39,374 nucleotides of DNA from a virus: positions 1 to 39,374 of the IMG/VR virus record IMGVR_UViG_3300011921_000002; one strand, given 5' to 3'. This document shows, piece after piece, positions 11,550-27,757 of the stretch. Below the pieces are notes generated by a model. It saw only the letters and a program-made list of their open reading frames with translations. It did no database searches and was not told the origin of the DNA. Within the stretch, counting starts at the first letter, position 1. Every line of letters begins with the position of its first letter. A program made the translations under genes and the position numbers.

Positions 11550-12161
11550 ATGGCAACCTTATTGACCGGAACCGGAGTGCAGGCAATGAGCCAGACCGGC
11601 TCCATCTTTGCTATCGGTGGCGCAGTCACTGGGGCGATCGGCTCCTACTACGCCGCACAAAACCAGAAGGCTCAACTGGAATCCCAGGCATCCTCGATGC
11701 GCTTCCAGTCTGACATCTCAGAACTCAACGCGGCCCAGGCCGAATTCACAGCCCAGCAGATCCTGCGTGCTGGCCAACAAAAGCAGGGCCAGATTGGCTT
11801 GCGTGCTGGCAAGATCAAGAGTTCACAGCGTGCATCGATGGCCGCTCGAGGCATTGACCTGGGCGTCGGCAGTGCTGTTGAGACGATTGCAACAACCGAC
11901 CTCATGAAAGAGATCGACATGCTGACCGTCAACGCAGACACCGTGCGCAGTTCAGAAGCCGCACGACTACAGCGCCAGAACTATCTGACCGCATCAGCAA
12001 TGCAAGATGTCTCTGCTTCAAACCTGGCCGCTTCAGGCGACAGCATCAGCCCATTCATGGCGGCAGGCTCGAGCATTCTTGGAAGCGCTGGGTCTGTGGC
12101 CAATGCCTGGTACCAAGATCGCAAACTTGCGGCCATAGCAAGCCGTCTGGGCATCGAATAA
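11550..12161 (+). CDS. Internal virion / ejection protein (small)
   Basis: 203 aa. AGGAG lies upstream. It is Gly/Ala-rich and hydrophobic at the N-terminus, then a Q-rich coiled region. Its position is equivalent to T7 gp13/14. Confidence 0.6.
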   Translation: MATLLTGTGVQAMSQTGSIFAIGGAVTGAIGSYYAAQNQKAQLESQASSMRFQSDISELNAAQAEFTAQQILRAGQQKQGQIGLRAGKIKSSQRASMAARGIDLGVGSAVETIATTDLMKEIDMLTVNADTVRSSEAARLQRQNYLTASAMQDVSASNLAASGDSISPFMAAGSSILGSAGSVANAWYQDRKLAAIASRLGIE

Positions 12162-12170
12162 GGACCGACC

Positions 12171-13859
12171 ATGGCAACAGTACCTATTTACGATTTACCG
12201 ACTCAAGACGCAAGCGTAGGCAACATGCCTGCATTCCAGGCGCCTGGCGTAGAACCAATGCGCGACTTCACTGGCGAGCAATTGCAAAAGACTGGCCAAG
12301 CCGTGCAGTCGTTTGGCACGACCGTGATGAAGATCGCAGACCGCTTGCAAGGTGAGGTCGACGACGCAAAAGCCAAAGAACTCTATAACACCTTTGCGGC
12401 CACAGCCGACACGATTGAAACGCAATACCTGACGCTCAAAGGCAAAGACGCTGTCGGCGCGGCGATGAAGACCAAGAACGATCTTGAAGCCGCATTGACT
12501 GATGTTGTTGGCAAGGCTGAGAACGATGTGCAAAAAATCATTTTGCGCAACTCTGCCAGCGTACGCCTGCGCAGTGCCAACAGTTCGATCATCAAGCACT
12601 CACTTGTTGAACAGCGCGACTACGACATCAAAGAAAGTGGCGCCCAAGTTGACACATTCGTCAATGACGCGATTCGATACTCTGCTGGCTGGCGCAACCC
12701 ACAAGGCGACTTTGCTGTGTACTACGGTGCCGCAAAAGATGGCGCCAACAAGTTGGCAGACAAACTTGGCTACGAAGCCAAGAGCGCACAGCGTGAGCAA
12801 TTGATCCTCAAAGCAACCAACCAAATCCATGGCCAAGTTGTGCAGACACAGATCGATGCGCAGAACCTGGACCAGGCACGCGACTACCTGCAACGCTACG
12901 GCAACGAGATGACGCCGGAGACTTTTGGCCGCGCAAAGAAAGCGCTTGAGATCGGCACATCCGACGCCAAAGAACAAGGCCTTGCAGAATCATTCTGGAG
13001 CAAGAGCGGCAACAACATTGCTGGCGCTTTGAAGCTGGCTCGTGAAACCTTGTCCGGCAAAGAAGAAGACCAGGTTGTGCAACGCCTCAAGATTTTTGAG
13101 AATGAGCGCACAGGCATTGTTCAAGCCGCGCAGAACGACGCCAAAGATAAAGCATGGCGCTCTTACGCAGAGACTGGCAACTTCAGCAAGATCCCGCCAA
13201 GCGTGTTGGCCAGCATGGATGGCGCTGACTTAGCCACCCTGCAACGCACAGCCAAGGCTGATGTCGAGGCACGCACAAAAGGCACCGAGGTCAAGACAGA
13301 TCCAAATGTCTACTACCAGTTGACGCAAGAAGCCATGATGAATCCTGACTTCAAAGATCCGACCAAGGTTGATCTGCGCAAATATTTTGACAAGCTGTCA
13401 CCTGGTGACCGCAATCACTTCATCAATTTGCAACGCACGATTGGCACAAAGAACGAAGCGCCAGAAGCAGTGACAACGCAACAGCAGATCACCGCAGTGA
13501 CCAAACAACTTGGCCTCAAAGATGAGAAGGCTGGCATGTTCACACAAGAGGCCAACAAAGCATTGTTTGCGGCTCAAGTGAACAAGGGCGGCAAGCTGAA
13601 CCAGGCAGAGCGCCAAAAGGTTCTTGATGGCCTTGTGCTTGAAGGTGAAGTGCTCAGTGGCTCGTTCTTCTTGCCTGACAAAAACATGCGCCGCTACGAG
13701 GCTCGCGCCCGTGGTGAAGAAGCCAAGTTCAAGCCAGAGTTCACTGATGCACAACGCGCACGCGCAAGCGAAGCGCTCAAGCGCAACGGTGTATCGAACC
13801 CGACTAAGTCACAGATTGATGCAGTGCTATTTGAAACCTACGGCATTGAGCAGAAGTAA
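12171..13859 (+). CDS. Internal virion / ejection protein (medium)
   Basis: 562 aa, highly helical and charged. Its position is equivalent to T7 gp15. Confidence 0.6.
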   Translation: MATVPIYDLPTQDASVGNMPAFQAPGVEPMRDFTGEQLQKTGQAVQSFGTTVMKIADRLQGEVDDAKAKELYNTFAATADTIETQYLTLKGKDAVGAAMKTKNDLEAALTDVVGKAENDVQKIILRNSASVRLRSANSSIIKHSLVEQRDYDIKESGAQVDTFVNDAIRYSAGWRNPQGDFAVYYGAAKDGANKLADKLGYEAKSAQREQLILKATNQIHGQVVQTQIDAQNLDQARDYLQRYGNEMTPETFGRAKKALEIGTSDAKEQGLAESFWSKSGNNIAGALKLARETLSGKEEDQVVQRLKIFENERTGIVQAAQNDAKDKAWRSYAETGNFSKIPPSVLASMDGADLATLQRTAKADVEARTKGTEVKTDPNVYYQLTQEAMMNPDFKDPTKVDLRKYFDKLSPGDRNHFINLQRTIGTKNEAPEAVTTQQQITAVTKQLGLKDEKAGMFTQEANKALFAAQVNKGGKLNQAERQKVLDGLVLEGEVLSGSFFLPDKNMRRYEARARGEEAKFKPEFTDAQRARASEALKRNGVSNPTKSQIDAVLFETYGIEQK

Positions 13860-13873
13860 TAGGACACAACGAC

Positions 13874-16800
13874 ATGATGCTAGTACCTGATGATGAATTC
13901 AACGCCGCCGCCGCACGAGTTGCCGGTGTAAAAAAAGCGCCAACACTCGATGAGTCAGCCGCCAATGTAATCGATGGCCAGCGCACGCAATTGCGCACCA
14001 GCCTGTACGGCGCACTCGATGCAAATCCTGATGAGGCCGCACGCGCAAAGAATCTATCAAACAAGTCTGGCATCCCTGTCGACATCGTCCAGCGCAACTA
14101 CGCGCAGGTCAATCGCAATGTGCAACTCAATGAGTTTGACGAAACGCTCAAGCGCTCGCCATTGCTTGGCCAATGGTTGAGCAACCCAAACAACGCGAAG
14201 ATCTCGCATGATGACTCGAGCAACCTGGCTGGCATCGAGCGTGAGTACGGCACGATCAAACCGATCGAGCGCTCATTCCTAGAAGAGATTACTGAACCGC
14301 TTCAGCGTGGCTATGCGCAATTCAAAAAAGCCTTTGCACTAGGTCTTGAAGACACACCAATAATCAAAGGATTGCAAAGCCGACAAAAAGCGGCGGCAGA
14401 AGCTAACGGCATCACATACGATCCAAAGATCCAACAAAAAGTTAGCCTGGAAAATTACGATCGCAACATCAACAAATTTCCTGTTCCCGAAAACATTCAA
14501 CGCGGCTTACAAGAAATTGGTGAAGCAACAAGTTTTAGTGAAGGCTTCTCTGCAATTATTCGCAACCCAGCCGCAGTCAAAGAAGTAATCTTTCAATCGA
14601 TTGGTGTTGGCGCACCAGGCCTTGCGGTCACTGCCGCATCCGTGCCCATGGGTCCATTGGCCGTGGCTACTGCCGCAGGCACAACAAGTTTCTTGATTGA
14701 GTACGCCACCACAATGGATGAAGTCATCACATCGCAGGCTGAAAAAATCAACTCATCAGACGCTTTGTACCGCGTGCTCACTGATGAAAAAATAATGAAT
14801 GAAGCACGCGAAAAAGGTATTAAGCGCGGCGTGCCCATCGCATTGTTTGATGCATTGACTGCTGGCATGGCTGGCAAGTTGCTCAAAGGCGCTCGCCCGA
14901 CAGTGTTGAGTGTTGGCACTCGCGTTGTTGGCGAAGGCGCTGTGCAGGCCGCAGGCGGTGCCGCTGGTGAAGCAACAGCCCAGGCATTGACTGGTGAATT
15001 CAAACCTGGCGAGATCTTGCTCGAGGCATTTGCAGAGATCCCAACCGCATTGGTCGAGGTGCCTGGCAACTATCGCGGCACCATGTTGCAAGCTGAGTCT
15101 GCCGAGCGCAGTGCCAAAGCATTTGAGAAGGTCCAAGAGTTTTCACGCGCCAGCAAGGTACGCGCACGCAGTGCTGAAACCTTTGGCGAGTGGATCGACC
15201 AGGTAAGCCAGGAGACTGATGTCACCACGGTTTACATCAGCGGCGAAACCCTTAAGCAATCTGGTTTGGCCGAGCGCGTGGCAGAAGTATCGCCATCAGT
15301 GCGTGAGCAACTAGACACAGCAGTTGCAACCGGTGGCGACATTGCCATCCCTGTAACCGAGTACCAAACCAACATTGCACCGACCGAGTTCAGCACAGCA
15401 CTGATCGACGACCTGCGCATTGAAGGCGAGATGATGACCCGCCGCGAGGCACGCGAGTTCATCGACAACCAGGCTGAGATCATGAAGACTCAGATGGAGG
15501 CCAACGCCAAAGTCGAGATGACTAACAAGGACTTCGTGAAGTCTGCGCGTGAAGTCGAGAATCTGATGTATCAGCAGGTCAAAGCGACCAAGCAGTACAC
15601 CGACAACGCGGCACGAATCAATGCACAACTTGTGCGTGACTTTGTGGTGACCCAATCAGCGGCACTCAAGATCATGCCGACCGAGTTCTACAACCGCTAC
15701 ATGTACCGCGTCGAGCGAGCAGAAGGCCAGCCTGGTGGCATGGCGCTGTTCAATCAAGATCAACGCGTGGTCATCGACAGCGTGCCATTCCGCAACTGGA
15801 TTGGCTCGTCCATTTTCCAAGACGAAACCGGCGCACCACAAACGCTGTACCACGGCACTGCCGACAATGTGACCGCATTTGATCCAGACCACCCAAACCG
15901 CAAAGACAGCGGCTGGCTTGGCACTGGTGTTTACCTGACAGACAGCGCCGACATGGCCGAGGTCTACGCCATGCAGAAGCGCCGCACCGGCACTGCTGGT
16001 GAGAATGTCATGCCGCTGTATGCGCGACTCGAGAACCCTTACATGGCTACCATGGAAGACAAGACTCGCATTCGTGCTGGTGGCCGTGAAGCCGCTGATG
16101 CATTCACTGCTGAACTGCAAGCCCAGGGCTACGACGGCGTGATCCTGGAAGTGGCGCCCGACGCACGCGAGATCGTGGTGTTCGACAACACCGCAGTCAA
16201 GTCGCCATTCAACGATGGCACATGGTCGCGTGAGAACGCAGACATTCTGCGCCAAGGCAACCAGGTATTACAGACCGAATCACTGACTGATGCCGACGCA
16301 ATCAACTCTGAAGAAGATGCAGAGGCCGACGATGTGGCCGCGATCGAAGCGCAAGCCGACATCCCCGAGACTGTCGAAGACCAGGCCGAACTCAAGAACG
16401 CACTCGAGGTGGCCAAAAGCCAGGTGTGGAACAAAGGCCGCGACCTGAAGCTGGCCATTCAGAATGCAGTGCAACAAGCCGCAACTGAGGCTGGTGTCGA
16501 TGTGTCGGTACCTTCGCCACAGACCACTGACTACCTGGTGCGCGTCGGCCTCAAGGACGCGCTGTTTGCACTCGAGCAAAACCCCAACGCGATTGGCTGG
16601 TACGACGAGAAAACTCGCCAGGCATTGGCCGTCATGGCACTGGTTCACCCAGAGATTGCGACAAACGAAGATGCACGCTTTGCATTCACTTGGGCGCTGG
16701 CTGTCACATCCAACGGCTTGAAGGTCGACAAGAACTTTGAACTGGCCGAAAAGGCGTACAGCTACTACAAAGAAAACAAGGTCATGCCCACCAACATCAA

Positions 16801-19800
16801 AGGTGGCCAGGCCCAGGGCGCGATCAATGACTCGCTTGCCTTGTTCAACGAATTGGTCGGAGCCTGGGGCATCAAGAACCTGCGCCAGTTCATGCAGACC
16901 AACTTCACCGTGGGTGAGATCAGCGCGATCAGCAAAGACCTCAAGCCAGGCGGTGAGCACGCAGACACCATGGTCAAGGGCGCGGCCATCATTGGCCCCA
17001 AGATTGGCAACGGCTTTTTCTCCAACCTGTACGGCGACTTTAGTTCCCTCACGATGGACCGCTGGCTGGTCCGCACCTGGGGCCGCTGGACCGGTACGCT
17101 TATCAAGAGCCTGCCCAAGCATGTGGAGACGGCCACCAACCGCCTGAACTCAGCAATCCGTAGCGCAACCCCAGAACAGGCCACACGCCTCTCTGAGGTC
17201 ATCGGCATGGACATTGCCAACACCGAGGTCAATCGCCTGGCTGATGCCATCCAGAAGGCCTCCATGGACCCCAAACTGCGCGAGCAGATGAACGAGTCCA
17301 AGGTTGGCGAAGAGATCCGCAAGGCGGGCAACAGTTTGGCCAAGTACAACGACGGCCAAAAGGAAGCACCGGCTGGCCCACACGAGCGCACCTACATCCG
17401 CTCCGTCTTTTCCCAGATCCTGGCTGAGTTGCAGGCTGATCCAGCCTATGCCGACCTGACCATGGCCGACTTGCAGGCCGTGCTCTGGTATGCAGAGAAA
17501 CGACTCTACGAATCAGCCAAGGACAATAATGTTGACCAAGAGTCAACAGACGGGTATAGTGATGAAGATGCCCCAGACTACGCCAACGCCGCCGCAGGTG
17601 TTGCGCGTACCTTGGGTGTTTCCGATCGCAAGATCAACAACGCATTGAAGAAGGAGTCCAAAGATGAACGCGCAAGACGAGCACGACTACAAGATGAGCA
17701 AGCGCAGGTCGCTGGAGGGGAGCAAGCAGAAGCTGGAGGCTTTACTCAAAGAGAAAAACGGCTCTTTGCAGGCGCAGTCGCCACCAGAATTGCAAGATCC
17801 AATCGAAGCGGCGATCAAAAACAATCCTGGTCTTACACGGCAAAAAGCAGTGGAGATGGCGGAAAAGTTCGGGTTCTAAAAAGCCAACTTGTCACCTACT
17901 CACAAGAATGGAAAGCAGGCGCAGGCCTGGCCCGCGTGTACCGCAACAACGGTATCACGGTGCCCAAGTTCTACGAGTTGGAGCAAGGCAACGCACAGAA
18001 TGCACAACGATTCTCTGAGGCCATCACAGCCAGCAAACAAGCCAGTGGCGACATGGGTGCGGCTGTCTTCGTCTACCCGGTCGAAGACTACCAAGGCATG
18101 CGCCTGTTCTTGTCTGAAGACGGCAAGTCCGGCGTCGCTGTCAAACCCGATGGCGACATCGTGTCGGTGTTCTCGCAAGCTGGCGCTGGCCGCTCTGTCA
18201 TGGAGTTGGCTGTGGCCGCAGGCGGTACCAAGCTGGATGCATTCGAGACGATCCTGCCTGAGTTCTACGCCGCGCACGGATTCGTTGCGGCTTCGCGTTT
18301 ACCCTGGGATGACACCCAGGCGCCCGAAGGCTGGAACAAAGAAGCGTTTGCCGACTTTAACAATGGCGAGCCGAATGTCGTATTCATGGCCCTTGACCAG
18401 TCGTACTACGGCTGGCACAAGATCAGCGATGGCAAGAAGTCCAAGACCTATGACGACGCCGTCGCAGATCAAAACCGCGCTGTAAAGCGCAACAAGAAAA
18501 GGAGAGAAGATAATGGAAAACCCGCAGTCTTTGCCCAATCAGGAACCGGAGCAGGCGGCGTACAACGCCTACGAGCAAGCGATCTCGATGTTGCCAAGCG
18601 ATACGGGACAGCCAGGGATGGAGCAACTTCAGTCCTTGGTATCCACTATTCAAAACAACCTCGGAATAGTCTTGCCGGATTCGCCTACGGAACAGGCTTA
18701 AAAGGCGCAGAGGCTGGCCGTCTGGCTGGCGCTGACTCTCGCCTATCCAACCGCATCCACTTCTATGTGGACACCGGCAATGGCGTACGCCCTGAAGCTG
18801 GTGTTGGCGGCAATGTGCATGCCGTCTACCTGGACAACCTATACGACGCGGCGGCTGACCCGCTTGGCCTACGCGCCCAGGCATCGGCCAATGGCCGTGA
18901 TGACCGTGGCCAATGGTTCAACGCGGTCGAGTCCGCAATCCTCGATGCTGGCTTTGATGGCGTCTACATTCCTGCCGCCCAGGGCGAGCAAGGTGTGGCC
19001 GTATTGCTTGGCCCACAGCACAAGGGTGTGCCGGTCGAACAGCATGGCATGCACGCAATGCCTGCCGCAGGCGCGTATACGCCCCCTGCAAGCACCAAAC
19101 GCAAGTACGCCATGCTCACCCCTGAGATCCGCAAATTCGAGGCCCAGGAGGCTCAGATCAAGGCGGCGGCACCATCGGCTGACCTGCGCTCTGGCACGCT
19201 GACATTTGACGAGGCTGACGCCGAGGCGGTGGCCAAGTTCTTTCCGCCTGCCGCACAAGCCCAGCCACTGCGCCAAGAAGAGCGCGGCGGCTTCGATCCG
19301 AAACGATTGACCACAATCCTCAACGAGAAGGCGGATATGTCCACCTTCCTGCATGAGACTGCGCACTTCTTTTTGACGGTTTACGCTGACATGGCCGCAC
19401 GGCCTGACGCCACCGAGCAGAACAAGCAAGACATGCAGACCATCCTGGATTGGTTTGGCATCAAAGACCTGGCCACCTGGAATGCGCTGTCGCTCGATGA
19501 GCAACGCAAGTACCACGAGTCATGGGCCTACAACTACGAGATCTACCTGTTTGAAGGCAAGGCGCCAAGCGTGCAAATGCAATCGATGTTTGAGCGATTT
19601 AGCGCCTGGTTGCGCCGCGTGTACAAATCGATCCGCGACGAACTCAATCAGATCTACCGCCAAGAAAACGGCGAAGACCTGCCAATCCTGACCGGCGAAG
19701 TCCGCCAGGTGATGGACCGCATGCTGGCCAGCGAAGAGCAGATCAAGCAGTCCGAGGCAGTCAACAGCATGGTGCCGATGTACCAGACCCAGGAAGAGTC

Positions 19801-22800
19801 CGGCATGTCCGACGAAGAGTGGGCCGGGTACCAGGCAATGATGGCCGAAGCCACAGAGGCATCGATAACTGAGTTGACACAGGCAAGCCTGCGCCAATTG
19901 AAGTGGCTGGGCAATGCTCGCTCTCGCGTGCTCAAAGAGATGCAGGCCAAGACGGCTGACATCCGCAAGGGCGTGCGCGAAGAGGTGGCCGCAGAAGTGC
20001 AAGAGGACCGTGTCTACACAGCCATGGAGTTCTTGAAGCGCGGCATCACCAAAGACGAGAACGGTCAAGACATCCAGGCATTGACTGGCCACAAACTCAA
20101 GATCGCTGATGTGAAGGCGCTCTACCCTGAAAGCAAAGAGTCGCTGACACCTGCACCTGACCTGGCCAAACTTGGCTATGGCAAGTACGGCATGCTGGCC
20201 GAAGAAGGCCTGCCGCCTGACCTGGTGGCATCGATGTTTGGTTTTGACTCTGGCGATCAGTTGGTGCGCTCATTGCTCGAGGCCAAGCCGATCAAAGAAG
20301 AGATCGATAACCGCACCGACGAGCGCATGCTGGCCGAATACTCTGACCTGCTGGACCCTGCCAGCATCGAGTTGGAAATCCAGAAGGCATTGCACAACGA
20401 AGCACGCGCCCGCTTTGTGGCCGTCGAGTTGCGCTACCTGGCCAAAGCAACACAGCCTGCACGCTTGATGATTCAAGCCGCGAAGACTGCGGCCAAGTCA
20501 ATCATCGGCAACAAGGTGATCAGCGAGATCCGTCCGCGTGACTACACGCTGGCAGAGGCACGCGCCGCCAAGGAAAGCACAAAGCAATCCAAAGCTGGCA
20601 AGATCACCGAGGCCGCAAAAGCCAAACAGAACCAACTGCTCAACAACCAGTTGTCGCTCGAGGCAGTCAACGCACGCAAAGAAATCGACAAGGCCATTGA
20701 CGGCTTTGCCAAGATTTTCAAAGGCGATGCAAAGATGGCCAAGAATCGCAACATTGATTTGGTCAACGCCGCACGCTACATCCTTGGCCACTACGGCCTT
20801 GGCCCGCGTGATGTCGAGCCTGCAAAGTTTGTTGAGCAACTCAAGTCATACAACCCAGACCTGTATGCAGACATCGAGCCGATCTTGCTCGAGTCGACCG
20901 GTGGCCCACGCAACTACAAGAAGTTGACGCTCAACGAGTTCCGCGAAATGAAGGAGATCGTCGACGCGTTGTGGTACCAGTCCAAGCGTGAGAACGAGGT
21001 GATGATTGAAGGCAAAGCAGTTGCTCTCGATTCGATCATTGCAGAACTCAATGCGCGACTTGATGAGATCGGCGTGCCTGAAGAGGTTGCCGGTGAGCGC
21101 ATGGCGCCTGGTCCAAAAGAGAAGGCCATCCGCGCCCTGTACAACGCCAAGGCATTGACCCGCAAGGTCGAGCACTGGGCTGATGCAACAGACGGCCCTG
21201 GTGGTCCTGGTCCATTCACCAACTACATCTGGCGCCCACTGCGTGCCGCGCTTGACCAGTACCGCGTCGATCGCAATCGCTATGTCAAAGACTATGTCGA
21301 CATGATCGCCAAGCTGGATCTGCCAGTGCAAAAGATCAACGCGCCAGAACTGAATTACACCTTCGGCAATGAGAACGGCGGCATCGGTAAAGCAGAGGTG
21401 CTTGGCGCCTTGATGCACATCGGTAACGACGGCAACATGAAGAAGCTGATTGCTGGCCGCAACTGGGGTCAAGTCAATGAGGATGGCTCGGTCGACACGA
21501 CGCGCTGGAATAGTTTCATGAACCGCATGATCGACGAAGGCGTGCTCACAAAAGCAGACTTCGACTTCGTGCAAGCAACCTGGGATCTGAATGAAGAACT
21601 CAAGCCTATGGCGCAAGAGGCGCATCGCGAGATCTTCGGCTACTACTTCAAAGAAGTCGAGGCTCGCCCAGTGGTTACACCGTTCGGCACATACCGTGGC
21701 GGCTATGTTCCTGCGAAGACTGATCCGTTCATAGTTCGCGACGCACAGCGTCAAATGAAGATGGAGGAACTCGAGGCCGACTTCCGCAACTCGATGCCAA
21801 GCACTGGCGCCGGGTTTACGAAGTCTCGCGTTGAGTACAACAAACCTCTGTCACTGGACATTCGTGTGATGGCCAAGCACATCGATGATGTGATCCGCTT
21901 TGCACGCGTACAGCCTACGATCCGCGACACACTCAAAATCATTCGCAAGCGTGACTTTGCAGACACGATCACGCGCATTGACCCGACTGTCATCGAGGAC
22001 ATGATCCTGCCATGGCTCAATCGATCTGCTCGTCAGATCACGAGCGAGGTCGGCATGAACCGAAGCATTGACAACTTCTGGCGTGCTGTCCGCACTCGCA
22101 CTGGTATCGGCATCATGTTTGCCAACATCACCAACGCGATGCAACAGGTGACTGGCTTCTTCCCTGCATTGCTCAAGGTCGAAGGCAAATACATGAAGAC
22201 GGCCCTGGTCGACTACATGAAGAGTCCAACAGCACAGGCTGAGTTTGTTGCTGAGTTGTCGCCATTCATGGCCGATCGCATGAGCAATCAGATGATCGAA
22301 GTGCAGGACATGATGAACGACCTGCTTATCAACCCAACCAAGTTCGACAAGATCCAGAAGTGGTCCAACAAGCATGGTTACTTCTTGCAACAAGCCTTCC
22401 AGAACTTTGTCGATGTCGTGACCTGGGTCGGCTCGTACAATCAGACTGTCGCAGAGTTGGGCGCAGATGTTGATGAGAAGTCAGCAAGCAACGAGGCCAT
22501 CAAGCGTGCAGACGCCGCAGTGCGTATGACGCAGTCCAGCCTGTTGCCTGAAGACTTATCTGCCTTTGAGGTTGGATCGCCGTTCTACAAGACGCTGATC
22601 CAGTTCGCTGGCTACTTCAACATGATCGCCAACTTGAACGCCAACGAGTACATCAAGATCTTCCGAGACATGGGCTGGCGTGGCCACAAGGGTAAGCTGT
22701 TCATGACCTACCTGCTGGGCTTTGGCCTGCCAATGCTGGCCGCTGACGCCATCGTGCGCAGTCTGGGTGGCGGCTGGGACGACGATGATGACGACGGCTA

Positions 22801-23203
22801 CCTCGATGTCTTTATGTCCTGGTTCTTTGGATCACAATTGCGTGGTGCAGTTGCCCTGGTGCCGTTTGGTACTGCGGCCACCGTGCCATTCAACGCATTC
22901 AACAACAAGCCTTACGATGACCGCATGACCACCAGCCCGTCTGTATCGACTCTGGAAGGTGCGACCATCGGTGTAGTAAAGGCCGGTATCAACATTGCAG
23001 ATCCTGACAAAGATGTGACGGGCAAGAATGTCCGCGACATCCTGACATTGATCAGCCTTGTGACCGGCGTCCCCGTTACCGTGCTCGGCAGGCCGATTGG
23101 TTATGCCATTGAAGTTGAGCGCGGAAAGATTGAACCAACCTCTTCTGCCGACTACATTCGCGGCCTTGCCACTGGCAAAGCAAGCGAGTCGTCGAGACAG
23201 TAA
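13874..23203 (+). CDS. Giant (3109 aa) polyvalent internal virion protein with several enzyme-like modules and a hydrophobic C-terminal third
   Basis: A single uninterrupted 9330-nt frame in the position of T7 gp16. See the module features and findings. Confidence 0.85.
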   Translation: MMLVPDDEFNAAAARVAGVKKAPTLDESAANVIDGQRTQLRTSLYGALDANPDEAARAKNLSNKSGIPVDIVQRNYAQVNRNVQLNEFDETLKRSPLLGQWLSNPNNAKISHDDSSNLAGIEREYGTIKPIERSFLEEITEPLQRGYAQFKKAFALGLEDTPIIKGLQSRQKAAAEANGITYDPKIQQKVSLENYDRNINKFPVPENIQRGLQEIGEATSFSEGFSAIIRNPAAVKEVIFQSIGVGAPGLAVTAASVPMGPLAVATAAGTTSFLIEYATTMDEVITSQAEKINSSDALYRVLTDEKIMNEAREKGIKRGVPIALFDALTAGMAGKLLKGARPTVLSVGTRVVGEGAVQAAGGAAGEATAQALTGEFKPGEILLEAFAEIPTALVEVPGNYRGTMLQAESAERSAKAFEKVQEFSRASKVRARSAETFGEWIDQVSQETDVTTVYISGETLKQSGLAERVAEVSPSVREQLDTAVATGGDIAIPVTEYQTNIAPTEFSTALIDDLRIEGEMMTRREAREFIDNQAEIMKTQMEANAKVEMTNKDFVKSAREVENLMYQQVKATKQYTDNAARINAQLVRDFVVTQSAALKIMPTEFYNRYMYRVERAEGQPGGMALFNQDQRVVIDSVPFRNWIGSSIFQDETGAPQTLYHGTADNVTAFDPDHPNRKDSGWLGTGVYLTDSADMAEVYAMQKRRTGTAGENVMPLYARLENPYMATMEDKTRIRAGGREAADAFTAELQAQGYDGVILEVAPDAREIVVFDNTAVKSPFNDGTWSRENADILRQGNQVLQTESLTDADAINSEEDAEADDVAAIEAQADIPETVEDQAELKNALEVAKSQVWNKGRDLKLAIQNAVQQAATEAGVDVSVPSPQTTDYLVRVGLKDALFALEQNPNAIGWYDEKTRQALAVMALVHPEIATNEDARFAFTWALAVTSNGLKVDKNFELAEKAYSYYKENKVMPTNIKGGQAQGAINDSLALFNELVGAWGIKNLRQFMQTNFTVGEISAISKDLKPGGEHADTMVKGAAIIGPKIGNGFFSNLYGDFSSLTMDRWLVRTWGRWTGTLIKSLPKHVETATNRLNSAIRSATPEQATRLSEVIGMDIANTEVNRLADAIQKASMDPKLREQMNESKVGEEIRKAGNSLAKYNDGQKEAPAGPHERTYIRSVFSQILAELQADPAYADLTMADLQAVLWYAEKRLYESAKDNNVDQESTDGYSDEDAPDYANAAAGVARTLGVSDRKINNALKKESKDERARRARLQDEQAQVAGGEQAEAGGFTQREKRLFAGAVATRIARSNRSGDQKQSWSYTAKSSGDGGKVRVLKSQLVTYSQEWKAGAGLARVYRNNGITVPKFYELEQGNAQNAQRFSEAITASKQASGDMGAAVFVYPVEDYQGMRLFLSEDGKSGVAVKPDGDIVSVFSQAGAGRSVMELAVAAGGTKLDAFETILPEFYAAHGFVAASRLPWDDTQAPEGWNKEAFADFNNGEPNVVFMALDQSYYGWHKISDGKKSKTYDDAVADQNRAVKRNKKRREDNGKPAVFAQSGTGAGGVQRLRASDLDVAKRYGTARDGATSVLGIHYSKQPRNSLAGFAYGTGLKGAEAGRLAGADSRLSNRIHFYVDTGNGVRPEAGVGGNVHAVYLDNLYDAAADPLGLRAQASANGRDDRGQWFNAVESAILDAGFDGVYIPAAQGEQGVAVLLGPQHKGVPVEQHGMHAMPAAGAYTPPASTKRKYAMLTPEIRKFEAQEAQIKAAAPSADLRSGTLTFDEADAEAVAKFFPPAAQAQPLRQEERGGFDPKRLTTILNEKADMSTFLHETAHFFLTVYADMAARPDATEQNKQDMQTILDWFGIKDLATWNALSLDEQRKYHESWAYNYEIYLFEGKAPSVQMQSMFERFSAWLRRVYKSIRDELNQIYRQENGEDLPILTGEVRQVMDRMLASEEQIKQSEAVNSMVPMYQTQEESGMSDEEWAGYQAMMAEATEASITELTQASLRQLKWLGNARSRVLKEMQAKTADIRKGVREEVAAEVQEDRVYTAMEFLKRGITKDENGQDIQALTGHKLKIADVKALYPESKESLTPAPDLAKLGYGKYGMLAEEGLPPDLVASMFGFDSGDQLVRSLLEAKPIKEEIDNRTDERMLAEYSDLLDPASIELEIQKALHNEARARFVAVELRYLAKATQPARLMIQAAKTAAKSIIGNKVISEIRPRDYTLAEARAAKESTKQSKAGKITEAAKAKQNQLLNNQLSLEAVNARKEIDKAIDGFAKIFKGDAKMAKNRNIDLVNAARYILGHYGLGPRDVEPAKFVEQLKSYNPDLYADIEPILLESTGGPRNYKKLTLNEFREMKEIVDALWYQSKRENEVMIEGKAVALDSIIAELNARLDEIGVPEEVAGERMAPGPKEKAIRALYNAKALTRKVEHWADATDGPGGPGPFTNYIWRPLRAALDQYRVDRNRYVKDYVDMIAKLDLPVQKINAPELNYTFGNENGGIGKAEVLGALMHIGNDGNMKKLIAGRNWGQVNEDGSVDTTRWNSFMNRMIDEGVLTKADFDFVQATWDLNEELKPMAQEAHREIFGYYFKEVEARPVVTPFGTYRGGYVPAKTDPFIVRDAQRQMKMEELEADFRNSMPSTGAGFTKSRVEYNKPLSLDIRVMAKHIDDVIRFARVQPTIRDTLKIIRKRDFADTITRIDPTVIEDMILPWLNRSARQITSEVGMNRSIDNFWRAVRTRTGIGIMFANITNAMQQVTGFFPALLKVEGKYMKTALVDYMKSPTAQAEFVAELSPFMADRMSNQMIEVQDMMNDLLINPTKFDKIQKWSNKHGYFLQQAFQNFVDVVTWVGSYNQTVAELGADVDEKSASNEAIKRADAAVRMTQSSLLPEDLSAFEVGSPFYKTLIQFAGYFNMIANLNANEYIKIFRDMGWRGHKGKLFMTYLLGFGLPMLAADAIVRSLGGGWDDDDDDGYLDVFMSWFFGSQLRGAVALVPFGTAATVPFNAFNNKPYDDRMTTSPSVSTLEGATIGVVKAGINIADPDKDVTGKNVRDILTLISLVTGVPVTVLGRPIGYAIEVERGKIEPTSSADYIRGLATGKASESSRQ
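15839..16210 (+). other. PARP-like (H-Y-E) ADP-ribosyltransferase module inside the giant protein
   Basis: TLYHGT (His660, 15851), GTGVYLTDSADMAEVYA (Tyr687, 15932) and REIVVFDNTAV (Glu766, 16169) parallel the PARP/diphtheria-type HG..GxGxYF..Y..E-I-V-Y-D pattern. Confidence 0.6.
17532..17560 (+). promoter_or_regulatory. Sigma70-like promoter candidate inside the giant gene
   Basis: TTGACC (17532-17537), a 17-nt spacer, then TATAGT (17555-17560). The -35 is embedded in the palindrome GTTGAC-N5-GTCAAC (17531-17547). It lies about 100 nt upstream of the nested ORF at 17664. Confidence 0.3.
17664..17879 (+). CDS. Nested +1-frame ORF 1 (71 aa) overprinted on the giant gene
   Basis: AAGGAG (17651-17656) lies 7 nt before the ATG. 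The composition is protein-like (MNAQDEHDYKMSKRR...NPGLTRQKAVEMAEKFGF). Codons in this frame end in G/C, while the giant frame here uses AGA/CGA/A-ending codons. Confidence 0.4.
   Translation: MNAQDEHDYKMSKRRSLEGSKQKLEALLKEKNGSLQAQSPPELQDPIEAAIKNNPGLTRQKAVEMAEKFGF
17880..18420 (+). other. GNAT-fold-like module inside the giant protein
   Basis: GVAVKPDGDIVSVFSQAGAGRSVMELAVAAGGTKLDAFETILPEFYAAHGF resembles the acetyl-CoA-binding core of GNAT-like domains. This assignment is tentative. Confidence 0.45.
18513..18701 (+). CDS. Nested +1-frame ORF 2 (62 aa, strongly acidic) overprinted on the giant gene
   Basis: AAGGAG (18499-18504) lies 8 nt before the ATG. It has 6 Glu and 2 Asp and no Lys, Arg or His. 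It is in the same phase as ORF 1. The SD is built from AGG-AGA Arg codons, which this genome otherwise seems to avoid. Confidence 0.35.
   Translation: MENPQSLPNQEPEQAAYNAYEQAISMLPSDTGQPGMEQLQSLVSTIQNNLGIVLPDSPTEQA
19352..19366 (+). other. HExxH zincin-type metallopeptidase motif inside the giant protein
   Basis: FLHETAHFFLTVY, with His1827-Glu1828-x-x-His1831. Confidence 0.5.
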
Positions 23204-23263: not shown

Positions 23264-26200
23264 ATGACCATCAGTTCAAATAGCCGGAAAGCCGGTCCGT
23301 TCATAGGTAACGGAACAGCCGCGACTTTCCCCTTTACATTCAAGGTCTTCCAGGCTTCTGACCTGGAAGTGGTCAAACTCACGGTTGCAACCAACATCGA
23401 AACGATTTTGGTCCTCAACACTGACTTCACCGCGTCCGTCAACGAAGACCAAAACTCAAGCCCTGGCGGCACGATCACGCTGTCTGCTGGCGCCCTGGCG
23501 ACCGGCTACAACCTGGTCATCACATCGGACATCGAGAACCTTCAGCCAACCGACTTGACCAACCAGGGCGGCTTTTACCCTGAAGTGATCACCGACGCGC
23601 TGGACCGTGCAACGATTCAGATTCAGCAGTTGCAAGAAGCTGTCGACCGCTCGGCAAAGTTGCCGATCACAAGCAGTGCTGATGCTGACGCCCTGGTGGC
23701 CGACATCGTGCGCCTGGCTGACAGCGCAGGCAACATCGACATCGTTGCCAACAACATCGACAGCGTAAATGATGTAGGCGACGACATCACCAATGTCAAC
23801 ATCGTTGCAACCAATATCAGCAATGTGAACACCGTGGCCGGTGTGTCGTCCAATGTGACGACTGTGGCTACTGACATCGCGGCTGTCAACACCGTTGCGG
23901 CTGACTTGAACGAGCCGGTGTCTGAGATTGAAACTGTTGCGACCAACATCACGAATGTAAACACCGTCGGCACCAACATTGCCAATGTCAACACAGTCGC
24001 TGGTATCAGCGCCAATGTAACAACCGTTGCAGGCATCTCTGCCAATGTGTCGACCGTGGCAACCAACAGCGCCAGCGTGGTGACTGTTGCTGGTGACATT
24101 GCCGCTGTGACTACTGTGGCCAACGACCTTAACGAGCCTGTCTCTGAGATCGAGACGGTTGCCGGTAGCATTGCCAATGTCAACACAGTTGGCACGAACA
24201 TCGCAAGCGTCAACACGACTGCCGCGAACAATACAAACATTACGACTGTGGCGACCAACATCGCCAATGTGAACACGACTGCAACCAACATTGCAAATGT
24301 GAACTCGGTCGCAGGCAACTCGACCAACATCAATGCAGTGGCTGGCAACAGCACCAACATCAACGCTGTCGCAACGAACTCGACAAACATCAACACTGCC
24401 GCGACAAACATTGCCGCGATCACGACTGTTGCCAATGACTTGAACGAGCCTACCAGCGAGATCGATGTCGTTGCAAACAACATTGCAAGCGTCAACACTG
24501 TCGGCACAAACATCGCTGATGTGAGCACCGTTGCAGGCGTTGCAGGCAATGTGAACACGGTTGCAGGCATTGCACCCAATGTGACGACTGTTGCAGGCAT
24601 TGCCGCGAATGTAACCACTGTGGCTGGCATCTCAACCGCTGTGACTGATGTTGCCGCGATTGATACCGATGTCACTACCGTGGCCGCGATCGATACTGAT
24701 GTGACTGCTGTGGCCACTGTGGCAAGCGACATCCCAACTGTTGCAGACAATGTCTCCAACATCAATGACTACGCCAACACCTACCAAGGTGCAAAGGCAA
24801 CACCTCCAACATTGCGCAACAACGGTGGCGCACTGCAAGAGGGTGACATGTACTTCAACACCACCAGCGACACGATGTTTGTGTACGGCTCTGGTGGTTG
24901 GGTGCCTGCTGGCTCAAGCGTCAACGGCACAAGTCAGCGATACAAGTATGTGGCCACCTCTGGCCAGACTTCATTTTCTGGCCTCGATGCCAATGGCAAC
25001 ACGCTGACCTATGACGCAGGCTTCATCGATGTGTACTTGAACGGCGTTCATTTGGACCCGACCGACTACACCGCAACGACAGGTACCAGCATCGTACTTG
25101 CATCAGGTGCGGCGCTAAACGATGAACTCTACATCGTTGCATTTGGCACATTCAATGTGGCATCGTTCAACGGCTCTGGCCTTGATGACAACACAGTCAA
25201 CATCAGCAAACTGAATGCAACCGGTACACGCAACGGTGGGACATTCCTTGCTGGCGACAACACATTTAAAACTGTGGCTGTTACGCCTACTGCTGTAAGC
25301 GACCAGGCAAACTCAAGCACGGGTTACTTTGATGTTCCAACAGGAACAACCGCAGAGCGGCCAGGTACTCCATCGACAGGAATGATTCGATTTAATTCGA
25401 CTCTTAATAATTTTGAGTATCACGATGGAACAAAATGGCGGCAACCAGCAGATGCTCCATATTCCGTTGAATATCTTGTAATTGCTGGCGGTGGTGGAGG
25501 TGGAGTCGGCAATAGCGGGCCAAACCAAGAGGGTGGCGGTGGCGGCGGCGCTGGTGGCTATCGGTCATCTGTATCTGGAGAAAATTCTGGTCGAGGTGCT
25601 TCTGCTGAATCAGCGCTGACTGTTTCGCCAAATACCGCTTACACAGTAACTGTTGGTGGTGGAGGTACTGGTGCAACCTCAGAAACAACAAGCGGAACGC
25701 AAGGCGCTTCTTCTGTATTTGGATCAATAACTTCTGTTGGCGGCGGCTATGGAGCGGCGGCAAACAATGCCGGAGGGTCTGGTGGCGCAGGCGGTGGCGG
25801 TGGATCAAACACATCTAGCACTGCTGGATCTGGTACCACTGGTCAAGGATATGACGGCGGAACAGGTGCAACTAGCGCTCAATCTGGAGGTGGTGGTGGT
25901 GCTGGATCTGCTGGAGTAAATAGCGGAACATACACTACTGGCGGTAACGGTGGCGGTGGCGTTACATCATCAATTACAGGATCATCTGTAACACGCGCAG
26001 GCGGTGGTGGTGGTGGAAGTTATACCAGCGGATCAGGCGGTTCAGGTGGTGGTGGCACTGGTGCAAATACAGGTGCGTCTGGTACGGCTGGTACAACAAA
26101 CACAGGTAGCGGTGGTGGCGGTGGTCACAAGTCTCCAAGATGGGCTGGCAATGGCGGCTCTGGTGTTGTCATTGTTCGCTACCTCGGCACACAGCGCGGC

Positions 26201-26275
26201 ACAGGCGGCACAGTCACCAGCGCAGGCGGCTACACGATCCACACCTTCACTTCGTCCGGCACATTCACGGCATAA
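23264..26275 (+). CDS. Tail fibre (1003 aa): N-terminal anchor, long heptad-repeat shaft, glycine-rich C-terminal receptor-binding module
   Basis: AGGAG lies upstream. The N-terminus SRKAGPFIGNGTAATFPFTFKVF is typical of podovirus fibre/spike anchors. This is followed by about 360 aa of xNIxNVNTVAx heptads, then the GGGGGG-rich module ending in GGYTIHTFTSSGTFTA. Confidence 0.85.
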   Translation: MTISSNSRKAGPFIGNGTAATFPFTFKVFQASDLEVVKLTVATNIETILVLNTDFTASVNEDQNSSPGGTITLSAGALATGYNLVITSDIENLQPTDLTNQGGFYPEVITDALDRATIQIQQLQEAVDRSAKLPITSSADADALVADIVRLADSAGNIDIVANNIDSVNDVGDDITNVNIVATNISNVNTVAGVSSNVTTVATDIAAVNTVAADLNEPVSEIETVATNITNVNTVGTNIANVNTVAGISANVTTVAGISANVSTVATNSASVVTVAGDIAAVTTVANDLNEPVSEIETVAGSIANVNTVGTNIASVNTTAANNTNITTVATNIANVNTTATNIANVNSVAGNSTNINAVAGNSTNINAVATNSTNINTAATNIAAITTVANDLNEPTSEIDVVANNIASVNTVGTNIADVSTVAGVAGNVNTVAGIAPNVTTVAGIAANVTTVAGISTAVTDVAAIDTDVTTVAAIDTDVTAVATVASDIPTVADNVSNINDYANTYQGAKATPPTLRNNGGALQEGDMYFNTTSDTMFVYGSGGWVPAGSSVNGTSQRYKYVATSGQTSFSGLDANGNTLTYDAGFIDVYLNGVHLDPTDYTATTGTSIVLASGAALNDELYIVAFGTFNVASFNGSGLDDNTVNISKLNATGTRNGGTFLAGDNTFKTVAVTPTAVSDQANSSTGYFDVPTGTTAERPGTPSTGMIRFNSTLNNFEYHDGTKWRQPADAPYSVEYLVIAGGGGGGVGNSGPNQEGGGGGGAGGYRSSVSGENSGRGASAESALTVSPNTAYTVTVGGGGTGATSETTSGTQGASSVFGSITSVGGGYGAAANNAGGSGGAGGGGGSNTSSTAGSGTTGQGYDGGTGATSAQSGGGGGAGSAGVNSGTYTTGGNGGGGVTSSITGSSVTRAGGGGGGSYTSGSGGSGGGGTGANTGASGTAGTTNTGSGGGGGHKSPRWAGNGGSGVVIVRYLGTQRGTGGTVTSAGGYTIHTFTSSGTFTA
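23700..24780 (+). repeat. Heptad (21-nt) periodic coding repeat array in the fibre shaft, with three super-repeats
   Basis: The NV(N/T)TVA(G/T)xxxN units are repeated dozens of times. DLNEP(V/T)SEI(E/D)xVA punctuation occurs at about 23901, 24124 and 24436. Confidence 0.85.
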
Positions 26276-26284
26276 GGAATCGAT

Positions 26285-27346
26285 ATGAGCAAAGCACGAA
26301 ATTTATCGCAGGTGATTGTCGACGCAGGTGGTGACATCAATGCATCATCGCTCGACAATGTGACGCCTGCATCGATCAGCGACAAGACCAACACAAGCAC
26401 TGGCGCATTTGATTTGCCTGCTGGCACTACGGCTGAACGGCCTGCGTCTCCAAGCGCTGGCATGACTCGCATGAACACCACAACTAATGAACCTGAATGG
26501 TATGACACGGTGCTTCAAAAATGGCAACCATTTAAAGATAGAACTTATGAAGTTGAGTTTCTTGTAGTAGGTGGTGGCGGTGGCGGTGGTTACAGATACT
26601 ACGCTGGTGGTGGTGGCGCAGGAGGATATCGTTCTTCTGTTCCAGGAGAGTCTTCTGGCGGAGGTGCTTCAGCAGAATCTTTGCTTGGATTAACTCTTGG
26701 CCAAGCATATTCTGTTGTGGTTGGCGCTGGCGGTGCTGGTAATGGAAACTCTGGTAGCAACTCCCAACTTGGAAATATTGTTTCTTTAGGCGGTGGTGCA
26801 GGTGGGCCTTTATCAACTGGTTCATTAAGCGGAGGAAGTGGTGGCGGCGGTGAATTAGGTAGTCCTTCTGGTTCTGGAACGACTGGACAAGGTTTTGCTG
26901 GTGGCACTCAATCAGGCGCTACTGCTGGTTCTGGTGGTGGTGGCGCATCTCAAGTAGGCCGACAAGGATCTGCTGGAAGCACAACAAGTGGCGGCAACGG
27001 CGTTGCTTCGTCAATTACAGGCACATCAGTTACACGCGCTGGTGGCGGCGCCGGAGCAATGAATGCCAATGCCTCCTATTTTGTTGCTTTAGGCGGAACT
27101 GGTGGCGGAGGAAATGCCGCCGCAGATTACATTGGAGCCGCTGTTCAAGCTGTAGCTGGAGCAACAAACACTGGCAGTGGAGGTGGTGCTGGATGCTGGA
27201 ACAATACGCCAAACGGAGCGTCAGGCGGATCTGGAATTGTTGTTTTGCGTTACCTTGGAGCGCAACGCGGCACTGGTGGAACAGTAACTTCAAGCGGCGG
27301 ATACACAATTCACACATTCACAACCAGTGGAACATACACGGCATAA
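26285..27346 (+). CDS. Second tail-fibre / receptor-binding protein (353 aa), paralogous to the C-terminal module of the first fibre
   Basis: Shares GxFDxPxGTTAERP, the (V/I)xGGGGGG core and the C-terminal RYLGxQRGTGGTVTSxGGYTIHTFTxSGTxTA with 23264..26275. AAGGA lies upstream. Confidence 0.8.
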   Translation: MSKARNLSQVIVDAGGDINASSLDNVTPASISDKTNTSTGAFDLPAGTTAERPASPSAGMTRMNTTTNEPEWYDTVLQKWQPFKDRTYEVEFLVVGGGGGGGYRYYAGGGGAGGYRSSVPGESSGGGASAESLLGLTLGQAYSVVVGAGGAGNGNSGSNSQLGNIVSLGGGAGGPLSTGSLSGGSGGGGELGSPSGSGTTGQGFAGGTQSGATAGSGGGGASQVGRQGSAGSTTSGGNGVASSITGTSVTRAGGGAGAMNANASYFVALGGTGGGGNAAADYIGAAVQAVAGATNTGSGGGAGCWNNTPNGASGGSGIVVLRYLGAQRGTGGTVTSSGGYTIHTFTTSGTYTA

Positions 27347-27358
27347 CAGGAGAAGCAT

Positions 27359-27745
27359 ATGGCACATTTTGCAAAAGTAAACAACGGGATCGTCGAGCAA
27401 GTCATCGTTGCCGATCCAGAATTCTTTGACACCTTTGTCGACTCGAGTCCTGGTCAATGGATTCAAACCTCATACAACACGCGTGGTGGCGTTCACTACG
27501 ACCCAGCGACTGGCGAGCCTTCTGCTGATCAAAGCAAAGCACTGCGCAAGAACTACGCAGGCATTGGTTACAGCTATGACGCAACGCGTGATGCATTCAT
27601 CCCTCCAAAGCCATACGCAAGCTGGTTGTTGAATGACGACACATGCTTGTGGGAAGCGCCTGCACCGTACCCAAATGACGGTGGCCGCTACACATGGAAC
27701 GAATCAACTCAAACATGGGATGCTGTCCCAGATCAACAGCCATAA
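27359..27745 (+). CDS. Conserved phage protein of unknown function (MAHFAKVNNGIV... family)
   Basis: 128 aa. AGGAG lies upstream. The N-terminal MAHFAK-x-NNGIVxQVIV motif is widespread in phage genomes next to fibre genes, as I recall. Confidence 0.6.
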   Translation: MAHFAKVNNGIVEQVIVADPEFFDTFVDSSPGQWIQTSYNTRGGVHYDPATGEPSADQSKALRKNYAGIGYSYDATRDAFIPPKPYASWLLNDDTCLWEAPAPYPNDGGRYTWNESTQTWDAVPDQQP

Positions 27746-27757
27746 AAAGGATGAGTA

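Follow-up and report, generated by a model that had tools for sequence, protein, structure and literature searches.

What task could a tailed phage assign to a single polypeptide of 3109 residues? The question is raised by a giant open reading frame (ORF) at nt 13874..23203 of the viral record IMGVR_UViG_3300011921_000002, the 39,374 nucleotides of which were analyzed in full and are referred to here as the window; all coordinates are those of the window unless stated otherwise, and the giant ORF, its modules, and the two genes directly before it lie on its plus strand. An original prediction, made by a model from the sequence alone, described the product as a polyvalent virion protein that combines ADP-ribosyltransferase (ART)-like, GNAT-like, and HExxH modules with a membrane-inserting C-terminus. 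We conclude, with a probability of about 0.75, that the giant ORF encodes the ejection protein of the gp16 slot (the position of internal virion protein D) of a podovirus of the BPP-1/epsilon15 type, and that this protein has been built up into a polyvalent effector of the phage type.

Identity and operon position of the giant ORF

The giant ORF begins with ATG and runs for 3109 codons without a stop across 9330 nt, and its product is 2.4-fold longer than T7 gp16 (1318 residues); it is thus uninterrupted and more than twice the length of gp16, as originally described, and every motif quoted in that description is found where it was placed. The last 1309 residues of the giant protein align with Bbp10 of phage BPP-1 (30.9% identity, E 2e-128, 85% coverage), and residues 1802 to 3104 match phrog_9880 with 1257 bits. 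Matches to 35 phage records extend over 80% or more of the C-terminal ≈1300 residues. The whole gene is collinear with ORF45 of Limnohabitans phage DC33, the 3125-residue product of which shares 88.7% amino acid identity with the giant protein, and we therefore refer to the latter as a Bbp10-family, gp16-slot polyvalent virion protein encoded by an intact ORF. The window itself is an almost complete podovirus genome, collinear with that of DC33 (PQ492659, 39,048 bp) and 85 to 92% identical to it at the nucleotide level over most of its length.

The surrounding genes place the giant ORF within a structural operon. Pfam models identify a T7-type portal (nt 2829..4532) and an epsilon15-type GP7 major capsid protein (nt 6648..7667), and the giant gene lies 3′ of these and of the genes for tubular tail proteins A and B, between Bbp12- and Bbp11-like genes on one side and the tail fiber gene on the other. 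The order of structural genes matches that of BPP-1, with tubular tail A and B as the counterparts of Bbp14 (52% identity) and Bbp13 (73%), respectively, followed by a Bbp12-like protein, a protein resembling the N-terminal part of Bbp11, the giant ORF, and a Bbp9-like fiber. The same operon position is occupied by the other members of the Bbp10 family, i.e., DC33 ORF45, the homologues in MW202722 and MW202640, those of Acinetobacter phage Ab9, Xanthomonas phage CP2, and Caulobacter phage Jess A, and OANV1 gp16. T7 gp16, like the giant ORF, is the last and largest of three ejection-protein genes and directly precedes the tail fiber gene, and Bbp10 has been listed as a divergent homologue of T7 internal virion protein D (Hardies et al. 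2016). A gp16 slot in a BPP-1-like podovirus chassis, as first proposed for this locus, is thus borne out by an operon collinear with that of BPP-1 and with a C-terminal core that matches Bbp10.

Conserved ends and a variable cassette in the Bbp10 family

To describe conservation within the family, we aligned the giant protein with ten homologues from annotated phage genomes, giving a set of 11 members of 2039 to 3209 residues. Those of comparable size are found in MW202722 (3209 residues), DC33 (3125), OANV1 (2986), and Ab9 (2839), and the length of the giant ORF is therefore not unique. BLAST mapping divides the protein into three zones, a conserved N-terminal region (residues 1–640), a variable middle (residues 640–1800), and a conserved C-terminal core (residues 1800–3109). 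In the members of ≈2040 residues (BPP-1, Jess A, PfDIW6, and a Vibrio phage), the N-terminal region is joined almost directly to the C-terminal core, and Bbp10 itself (2052 residues) lacks the middle zone that distinguishes the giant protein. A Pfam scan of the 11 members finds LPD22 in ten, ART-PolyVal in six, and PBECR5, PBECR1, and a canonical Pfam GNAT in one each; since the cargo domains differ among members between constant ends, the middle zone can be regarded as a swappable cargo cassette. As judged from this alignment, conserved N- and C-terminal regions flank a lineage-variable cassette, the contents of which in other members are PBECR nucleases, a canonical GNAT, or an ART only. The cargo of the giant protein is an ART of the H-Y-E type, a 490-residue all-α domain (module X), a predicted GNAT-fold acyltransferase, and a further domain termed module 3. 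DC33 ORF45 has the identical architecture, and DC33 is the sole isolated phage among those searched that shares the GNAT-like module and module 3.

The conserved ends are well delimited. LPD22, a marker of large polyvalent proteins, spans residues 43 to 124 (nt 14000..14245; Pfam PF18834, 76.9 bits against a cutoff of 28.6), and a second conserved N-terminal stretch (residues 400–640, nt 15071..15793) aligns with residues 401 to 610 of Bbp10 (BLASTP, 35% identity, E 2.5e-26), matches other family members as well, and is present in 40 of 150 representatives. The Bbp10-type C-terminal core (residues 1800–3109, nt 19271..23200) corresponds to phrog_9880 and retains 51 invariant alignment columns. 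Common to the family and the giant protein are the LPD22-bearing N-terminal region and a core of 1300 residues in which the HExxH...E arrangement is invariant, a GGYxP motif recurs, and an acidic run comes after a hydrophobic helix. A Pfam search of seven sub-segments of the giant protein at E ≤ 10 returned only LPD22; neither the whole protein, compared with Protein Data Bank (PDB) sequences, nor the C-terminal core, compared with the PDB by sequence and profile searches, gave a significant match.

GenBank names for members of this family include "crystallin beta/gamma motif," "lysin," "lysis protein," and "hypothetical," none of which reflects domain content. The first is essentially unsupported, since of 22 zincin-region segments a single one gave a Pfam Crystall match, at E 0.053. 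A muralytic function, as the "lysin" labels of homologues would imply, was considered and set aside, with no lysozyme, SLT, or peptidase-M23 domain detected in the giant protein using Pfam and PHROGs. Labels such as these are uninformative or misleading, and their correction is due.

The ART-PolyVal module

The ART domain (residues 650–779, nt 15821..16210) matches Pfam ART-PolyVal (PF18760) with 71.1 bits against a cutoff of 31.2, covering profile positions 1 to 134 of 140, and also matches phrog_4700. All three residues of the triad are present, with H660 in LYHGT (residues 658–662, from nt 15845), Y687 in GTGVYLT (GxGxYxT, within GTGVYLTDS, residues 683–691), and E766 in REIVVFD (residues 765–771, from nt 16166), and the H-Y-E module that had been read from the letters is confirmed at the level of both family and motif. 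By analogy with the family description, these residues would fall on strands 1, 2, and 5, respectively. The ART-PolyVal family is given as H-Y-D (Iyer et al. 2017, J Bacteriol, PMC5512222), whereas the giant protein harbors H-Y-E. In an alignment of 19 ART domains, the His is found in all 19; the Tyr is kept in 12 and replaced by W in three, F in three, and H in one; and position 766 is E in eight, D in four, a gap in five, and another residue in two.

The GNAT-like module

Residues 1336 to 1550 (nt 17879..18523) form a GNAT-fold module, predicted to be an acyl-CoA N-acyltransferase on the basis of an AlphaFold2 model, Foldseek searches, and phrog_2563. The model has a predicted local distance difference test (pLDDT) score of 87.2 and an element order of β4-α3-β5-α4-β6. 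When it is compared with the PDB using Foldseek, the top 50 matches are all GNATs, with E-values from 2.2e-3 (best) to 0.1 and probabilities up to 0.99; target-normalized template modeling (TM) scores are 0.45 to 0.56 for single-domain GNATs and lower for multidomain targets. A conserved G-x-G-R loop follows β4 and is not the canonical Q/RxxGxG/A. Fourteen residues, β4-loop-α3 included, are invariant in homologues that are 26 to 58% identical to the module. A profile of the module searched against PDB sequences reaches an E-value of only 0.68, to the acetyltransferase 1y9w. The structural model thus supports the GNAT call at the level of the fold, and the GNAT-like core of the original prediction is retained at that level. 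A Streptomyces phage "acetyltransferase," Speedwell gp78, was tried as a bridge to the Pfam GNAT models and rejected, as it matches no Pfam model either.

Three head proteins end in a homologue of this module: the portal protein P0024, the Mu F protein P0027, and gp4 of Microbacterium phage Barnstormer, a minor capsid protein of the VG15 type. Proteins of these three kinds are classic head-internal carriers of packaged effectors, and the fusions provide only an indirect pointer to packaging.

The zincin-like HExxH region

The conserved C-terminal core begins with a zincin-like metallopeptidase region (residues ≈1804–1960, nt 19283..19753) that harbors an HExxH motif at residues 1827 to 1831, followed by H1881-E1882 and by E1889. 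The motif lies within FLHETAHFF (residues 1825–1833), a string that starts at nt 19346, with the first His of HExxH at nt 19352. None of the 11 phage homologues, down to 23% overall identity, departs from H1827, E1828, H1831, or E1882, and 54 of 55 family segments contain HExxH, so that the motif picked out originally is a conserved one and not a chance occurrence. E1882 lies 51 residues past the second His of HExxH.

This region (here residues 1800–2010) aligns with residues 773 to 979 of Bbp10, which fall within the range (residues 700–1000) that served as one seed of the zincin-like CLCA_X family, where the link of the Bbp10 region to zincins was based on FFAS and HHalign (Lenart et al. 2013, PLoS One, PMC3650047). 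The CLCA_X consensus is HExxHxxxD; at the +4 position the giant protein has Thr, and the Bbp10-family consensus is Glu. The Bbp10 family also conserves an H-E pair ≈50 residues after HExxH, unlike the published CLCA_X consensus. Other profile tests of the region gave only sub-threshold matches anchored on HExxH, each from single members (Reprolysin_4, E 0.0039; Peptidase_M78, E 0.018), a comparison with the HExxH helix of YME1 (M41) was likewise below threshold (E 0.51), and Pfam MPTase-PolyVal gave no match. The HExxH...E region is accordingly described, as in its published classification, as zincin-like, with a putative peptidase role; no CLCA_X member is known to have protease activity.

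Module X and module 3

Two further domains of the cassette match no Pfam model. Module X (residues ≈820–1310, nt 16331..17803) recurs in phage polyvalent proteins; we collected 72 homologues, in which that region is free of Pfam domains, and their alignment contains ≈29 invariant residues and the motifs NAIGWYD, ALAVTSNGxKVDKNF, GPKIGNGFFxNLxG..LTMDRW..RTWGR, and DLQALLWYPEKRLY. The AlphaFold2 model of its 490 residues (pLDDT 84.5, predicted TM score 0.81) is all-α and finds no match among PDB folds using Foldseek (best probability 0.08, TM ≈0.1), and no significant match to the PDB was obtained by sequence or profile. In BFVD, module X matches solely polyvalent proteins of uncultured phages, with E-values down to 6e-45.

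Module 3 (residues ≈1577–1725, nt 18602..19048) contains GIHYSK (GIHYSKQ at residue 1589) and GFDGVYIP (residues 1693–1700) and is a widespread, enzyme-like domain of giant phage proteins. An exhaustive phmmer search over 1.84 billion cluster representatives (50% identity) retrieved at least 842 of them with E ≤ 1e-3, of which 619 reach E ≤ 1e-10; almost all carriers in the list of the best 150 matches are 1500 to 4700 residues long. The domain co-occurs with ART-PolyVal, LPD22, LPD38, DUF7178, and SAM lyase, and has no relative among PDB sequences. Its invariant residues (H1591, S1593, E1613, R1616, R1627, Y1631, E1641, H1649, Y1657, and E1686) look catalytic. The earlier reading had heard in GFDGVYIP an echo of GYDGVILEV, the end of the ART module; hhalign of a 151-sequence module 3 profile against the ART profile gives a probability of 3.6% with that strand alone aligned, and we dropped the proposed homology. 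The GY.GV motif also hits ribosomal protein uS3, by chance. Modules X and 3 both occur abundantly in giant phage proteins, lie outside Pfam, PHROGs, and NCBIfam, and merit family definition and structural work.

The Bbp10 family as phage-type polyvalent proteins

Phage-type polyvalent proteins are predicted to be packaged and injected with DNA and include architectures in which a GNAT adjoins an ART, with a metallopeptidase as a hub domain (Iyer et al. 2017). They are recognized by at least two disparate activities, by LPD or PolyVal domains, and by a location among late or virion structural genes. The giant protein combines predicted ART-PolyVal, GNAT-fold, and HExxH...E modules with two further conserved domains, harbors LPD22 (76.9 bits) and ART-PolyVal (71.1 bits) above the Pfam curated cutoffs, and is encoded among virion structural genes, which sustains the polyvalent framework first invoked for it. 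What it shares with the proteins of Iyer et al. 2017 is a large multidomain architecture, a late or structural operon, ART-PolyVal with an adjoining GNAT, a zincin-like metallopeptidase, and an LPD domain; on domain content, the whole Bbp10 family is of this phage type. That survey contains no occurrence of gp16, internal virion proteins, or transmembrane segments.

The exact order LPD22-N-ART-X-GNAT-module 3-zincin-core is found in DC33 and in two metagenomic representatives of 50%-identity clusters (P0093, 3090 residues; P0094, 3078 residues), and other giant proteins reshuffle the same modules, e.g., as module 3-X-GNAT-ART. The suggestion that the module combination may be undescribed does not survive this comparison, given the shared order in DC33 and both representatives, the presence of ART-PolyVal in six of 11 Bbp10 homologues, and the published combination of ART, GNAT, and metallopeptidase. 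What goes, modestly, beyond the literature that we found is the equation of a polyvalent protein with a gp16-slot ejectosome subunit, with cargo placed between two hydrophobic regions, and the two abundant domains for which no family model exists. The giant protein in this way links the structural literature on the ejectosome (T7 gp14, gp15, and gp16) with that on polyvalent injected effectors, which are defined computationally; within the BPP-1 lineage, the gp16-slot protein is itself the polyvalent one, with conserved ends around a swappable cassette.

T4 Alt and P1 DarB/DdrB offer precedents, as head-packaged enzymes delivered with DNA; Alt modifies the host RNA polymerase and Dar protects the incoming DNA. 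Alt, an ART of the R-S-E type from a myovirus, does not belong to an ejectosome protein, the Dar proteins are separate head proteins, and neither Alt nor Dar is fused to a conduit-forming protein. The C-terminal zincin-like peptidase of P1 DdrB is thought to self-process (Iyer et al. 2017).

Hydrophobic segments and comparison with T7 gp16

Hydrophobicity was scored on the Kyte-Doolittle scale with a 19-residue window. Near the N-terminus, a Gly/Ala-rich, moderately hydrophobic region (residues 238–340, nt 14585..14893) reaches peaks of 1.3 to 1.5 and is, by analogy, a possible counterpart of transmembrane helix (TMH) region I of T7 gp16. Toward the C-terminus, a family-conserved hydrophobic helix (residues 2942–2961; 1.62 over residues 2943–2961) is followed by an acidic run, the two together spanning nt 22697..22795; in the giant protein the run is Asp6 (residues 2969–2974, nt 22778..22795). 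The acidic run has a counterpart in all 11 members, which makes Asp6 a family feature, and the hydrophobicity of the preceding segment exceeds 1.5 in most members, not all. A second C-terminal segment (residues 3053–3072, nt 23030..23089; 1.70 over residues 3053–3071) is lineage-specific, its counterpart being hydrophobic only in the window, DC33, and MW202722. Several hydrophobic helices had been proposed for the C-terminal part, three of them by quoted sequence; the two just described stand, one family-conserved and one lineage-specific, and the third, a segment beginning GIGIMF (residues 2744–2767, scored over residues 2740–2770), has a mean of 0.36 and is not hydrophobic.

In T7 gp16, two putative transmembrane regions, TMH I (residues 243–410) and TMH II (residues 1119–1290), flank the cytoplasmic gp16-C (review). 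Both T7 gp16 and the giant protein have a hydrophobic region near the N-terminus and another at the C-terminus, flanking a long helical region, and the relative positions of residues 238 to 340 and 2942 to 3072 are comparable to those of TMH I and TMH II. The two proteins differ in that T7 gp16 is without the ART, GNAT, or HExxH modules, and in that the N-terminal lytic transglycosylase of gp16 has no SLT or lysozyme match in the giant protein in searches of Pfam, PHROGs, and NCBIfam; this transglycosylase is phage-specific and is not found in P22-like gp16 (review).

Two local features were recorded in passing. Residues 201 to 400 (nt 14474..15073) share only 43 to 66% identity with DC33, whereas every other 100-residue block shares 83 to 100%, and nt 14570..14779 have no blastn match to DC33; the gene, conserved elsewhere, is thus locally hypervariable at residues 201 to 400. 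Furthermore, an invariant GGY.P (residues 2609–2613, nt 21698..21712; consensus RGGYYPxKYDP) was aligned with KGTYVPHVYDR of T7 gp16 (residues ≈662–672) in a nonsignificant hhalign comparison and could be either a true remnant of internal virion protein D or a chance match.

Proposed mode of action and alternative explanations

Judging from its operon position and its family, the giant protein would be packaged in a few copies, together with the gp14-like and gp15-slot proteins, in the core of the capsid and, on infection, be expelled via the tail, either before the DNA or along with it. Its two hydrophobic regions, one N-terminal and one C-terminal, would then engage the inner membrane, as proposed for TMH I and TMH II of T7 gp16, and the region between them, with its cargo of ART, module X, GNAT, module 3, and peptidase, would end on the cytoplasmic side, a placement that follows from the topology of T7 gp16 if the analogy holds. 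The ART, using NAD+, and the GNAT, using acyl-CoA, could modify host proteins or defense factors before any phage gene is expressed, and the zincin-like module may either cleave the polyprotein, freeing the cargo, or act on host proteins; both options, cargo release and attack on host proteins, are discussed by Iyer et al. 2017. Packaging, ejection, membrane insertion, conduit formation, and enzyme action on host targets are all steps that we infer from such analogies. A bolder extension starts from the position of the cargo between N-proximal and C-terminal membrane-engaging regions, which, if so, would leave the enzymes tethered and not released. The cargo might then encircle the DNA-entry pore as a ring on the cytoplasmic side and act in cis on its first contacts (restriction or defense complexes, RNA polymerase), with modules 3 and X as two new families of injected enzymes or defense inhibitors; we regard this extension as doubtful but conceivable.

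Several observations weigh against a gp16-slot polyvalent effector. Sequence and profile searches of the PDB return nothing significant for either the zincin region or the ART module. The Foldseek E-values for the GNAT-like module are modest even for the best match, and no Pfam GNAT model (Acetyltransf_*) matches the module or its homologues. The hydrophobic segments are only marginally membrane-like (1.3–1.7), a single one of them is conserved, and the region at residues 238 to 340 is poorly conserved in the family. Comparison of the C-terminal core with T7 gp16 by hhalign gives probabilities of 1.1% (family profile against the single T7 sequence) and 1.2% (56-sequence core profile against the T7 set), although this is a weak test with an effective sequence number of 1 on the T7 side; the best 120 T7 gp16 homologues listed are all at least 94% identical and yield no diverse T7 profile. 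The literature searched contained no study of Bbp10 homologues, whether by proteomics or by biochemistry, that addresses virion presence, ejection, membrane insertion, or activity, and the DC33 paper does not discuss ORF45. To our knowledge, biochemical characterization of a polyvalent ART or GNAT of this type is not on record. DC33, a near-identical phage in culture on a Limnohabitans host, makes packaging, processing, and early host modification testable.

Other explanations of the locus begin with the ORF itself, which could be an annotation or assembly artifact that fuses several genes, or could be expressed as several separate proteins. One homologous region, in a chicken-gut metagenomic contig from ENA (L015, 40,358 bp), indeed consists of three consecutive ORFs of 735, 936, and 1098 residues. 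Its breaks, however, lie beside poly-A runs and interrupt two conserved parts, the ART domain and the C-terminal core, and are therefore probably frameshift errors in a polished assembly, for which reason we rejected this split homologue as proof of separate polypeptides. The unbroken frame in the window, the collinear 3125-residue ORF in DC33 as an independent isolate, single ORFs of 2039 to 3209 residues in at least nine other phage genomes, and the same domain order in two metagenomic representatives make fusion or separate expression highly improbable. Apart from this question, the abutting three-ORF version (L015:7782-16107, BPP-1-like) carries the ART, module X, zincin region, and core and is without the GNAT-like module or module 3.

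An intact protein could still be a structural component of the ejectosome or core stack, the enzyme-like modules of which are noncatalytic, either as decayed passengers or as bulk or spacers by which core size or capsid pressure is set. It is, after all, the N- and C-terminal regions that are conserved, the middle is dispensable in the members of ≈2040 residues, Pfam GNAT and zincin models do not match the giant protein, and the Tyr position of the ART varies among relatives. Decay is nonetheless hard to reconcile with an intact H660, Y687, and E766, with the near-invariant His and HG[ST] motif of the 19 aligned ART domains, with the 14 residues that the GNAT-like module keeps across homologues of 26 to 58% identity, and with the many invariant polar residues that modules 3 and X each retain; the fusion of the same modules to unrelated head carriers (portal, Mu F) further argues for selection on module activity itself, and we consider a noncatalytic role quite unlikely. 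The modules could alternatively be active outside the cytoplasm or before ejection, i.e., on phage proteins or DNA in the capsid, in the periplasm or envelope, or late in the producing cell. The metallopeptidase may process polyproteins inside the head (Iyer et al. 2017), and envelope functions lie nearby, in that relatives of the giant protein and of its upstream neighbor are annotated as lysins and relatives of the neighbor carry muralytic domains. The giant protein itself has no muralytic domain detectable with Pfam, PHROGs, or NCBIfam, however, and T4 Alt and P1 Dar are precedents for injected proteins. Furthermore, the ART and GNAT need NAD+ and acyl-CoA, cytoplasmic cofactors that are absent from the capsid and periplasm, and action at these other sites is therefore unlikely. 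A gp16-slot ejection protein that carries polyvalent effectors thus remains the reading that we prefer.

Neighboring genes and the DC33 record

Two genes precede the giant ORF in the positions of the smaller ejection proteins. The first (nt 11550..12161) encodes a gp14/Bbp12-like internal virion protein of 203 residues (34% identity to Bbp12, E 9e-23) with a weak match to Pfam T7_gp14 (E 0.0096, under the cutoff). The second (nt 12171..13859) encodes a gp15-slot protein of 562 residues, homologous by BLASTP to the N-terminal ≈250 residues of Bbp11; it aligns only with the N-terminal parts of Bbp11, the MW202722 "lysozyme," and the MW202640 "peptidase M23" (720–790 residues), is without the C-terminal muralytic domains that these homologues carry, and has no Pfam or NCBIfam match. 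NCBIfam likewise returned nothing for the giant protein and both upstream neighbors. With no peptidoglycan hydrolase detectable in either the gp15-slot protein or the giant protein, a virion-associated wall-degrading activity, if any, is unaccounted for.

The GenBank record of DC33 (PQ492659) labels nearly all ORFs, the 3125-residue one included, as hypothetical, and its taxonomy line assigns the phage to Inoviridae (Tubulavirales), which conflicts with the tailed-podovirus genes of a 39-kb dsDNA genome and with published electron micrographs. Finally, nt 25162..27815 of the window have no nucleotide match to DC33; they span the C-terminal part of the 1003-residue Bbp9-like tail fiber and a 353-residue protein, both of which harbor Pfam Gly_rich_2, and this stretch looks like a receptor-binding module swapped relative to DC33.

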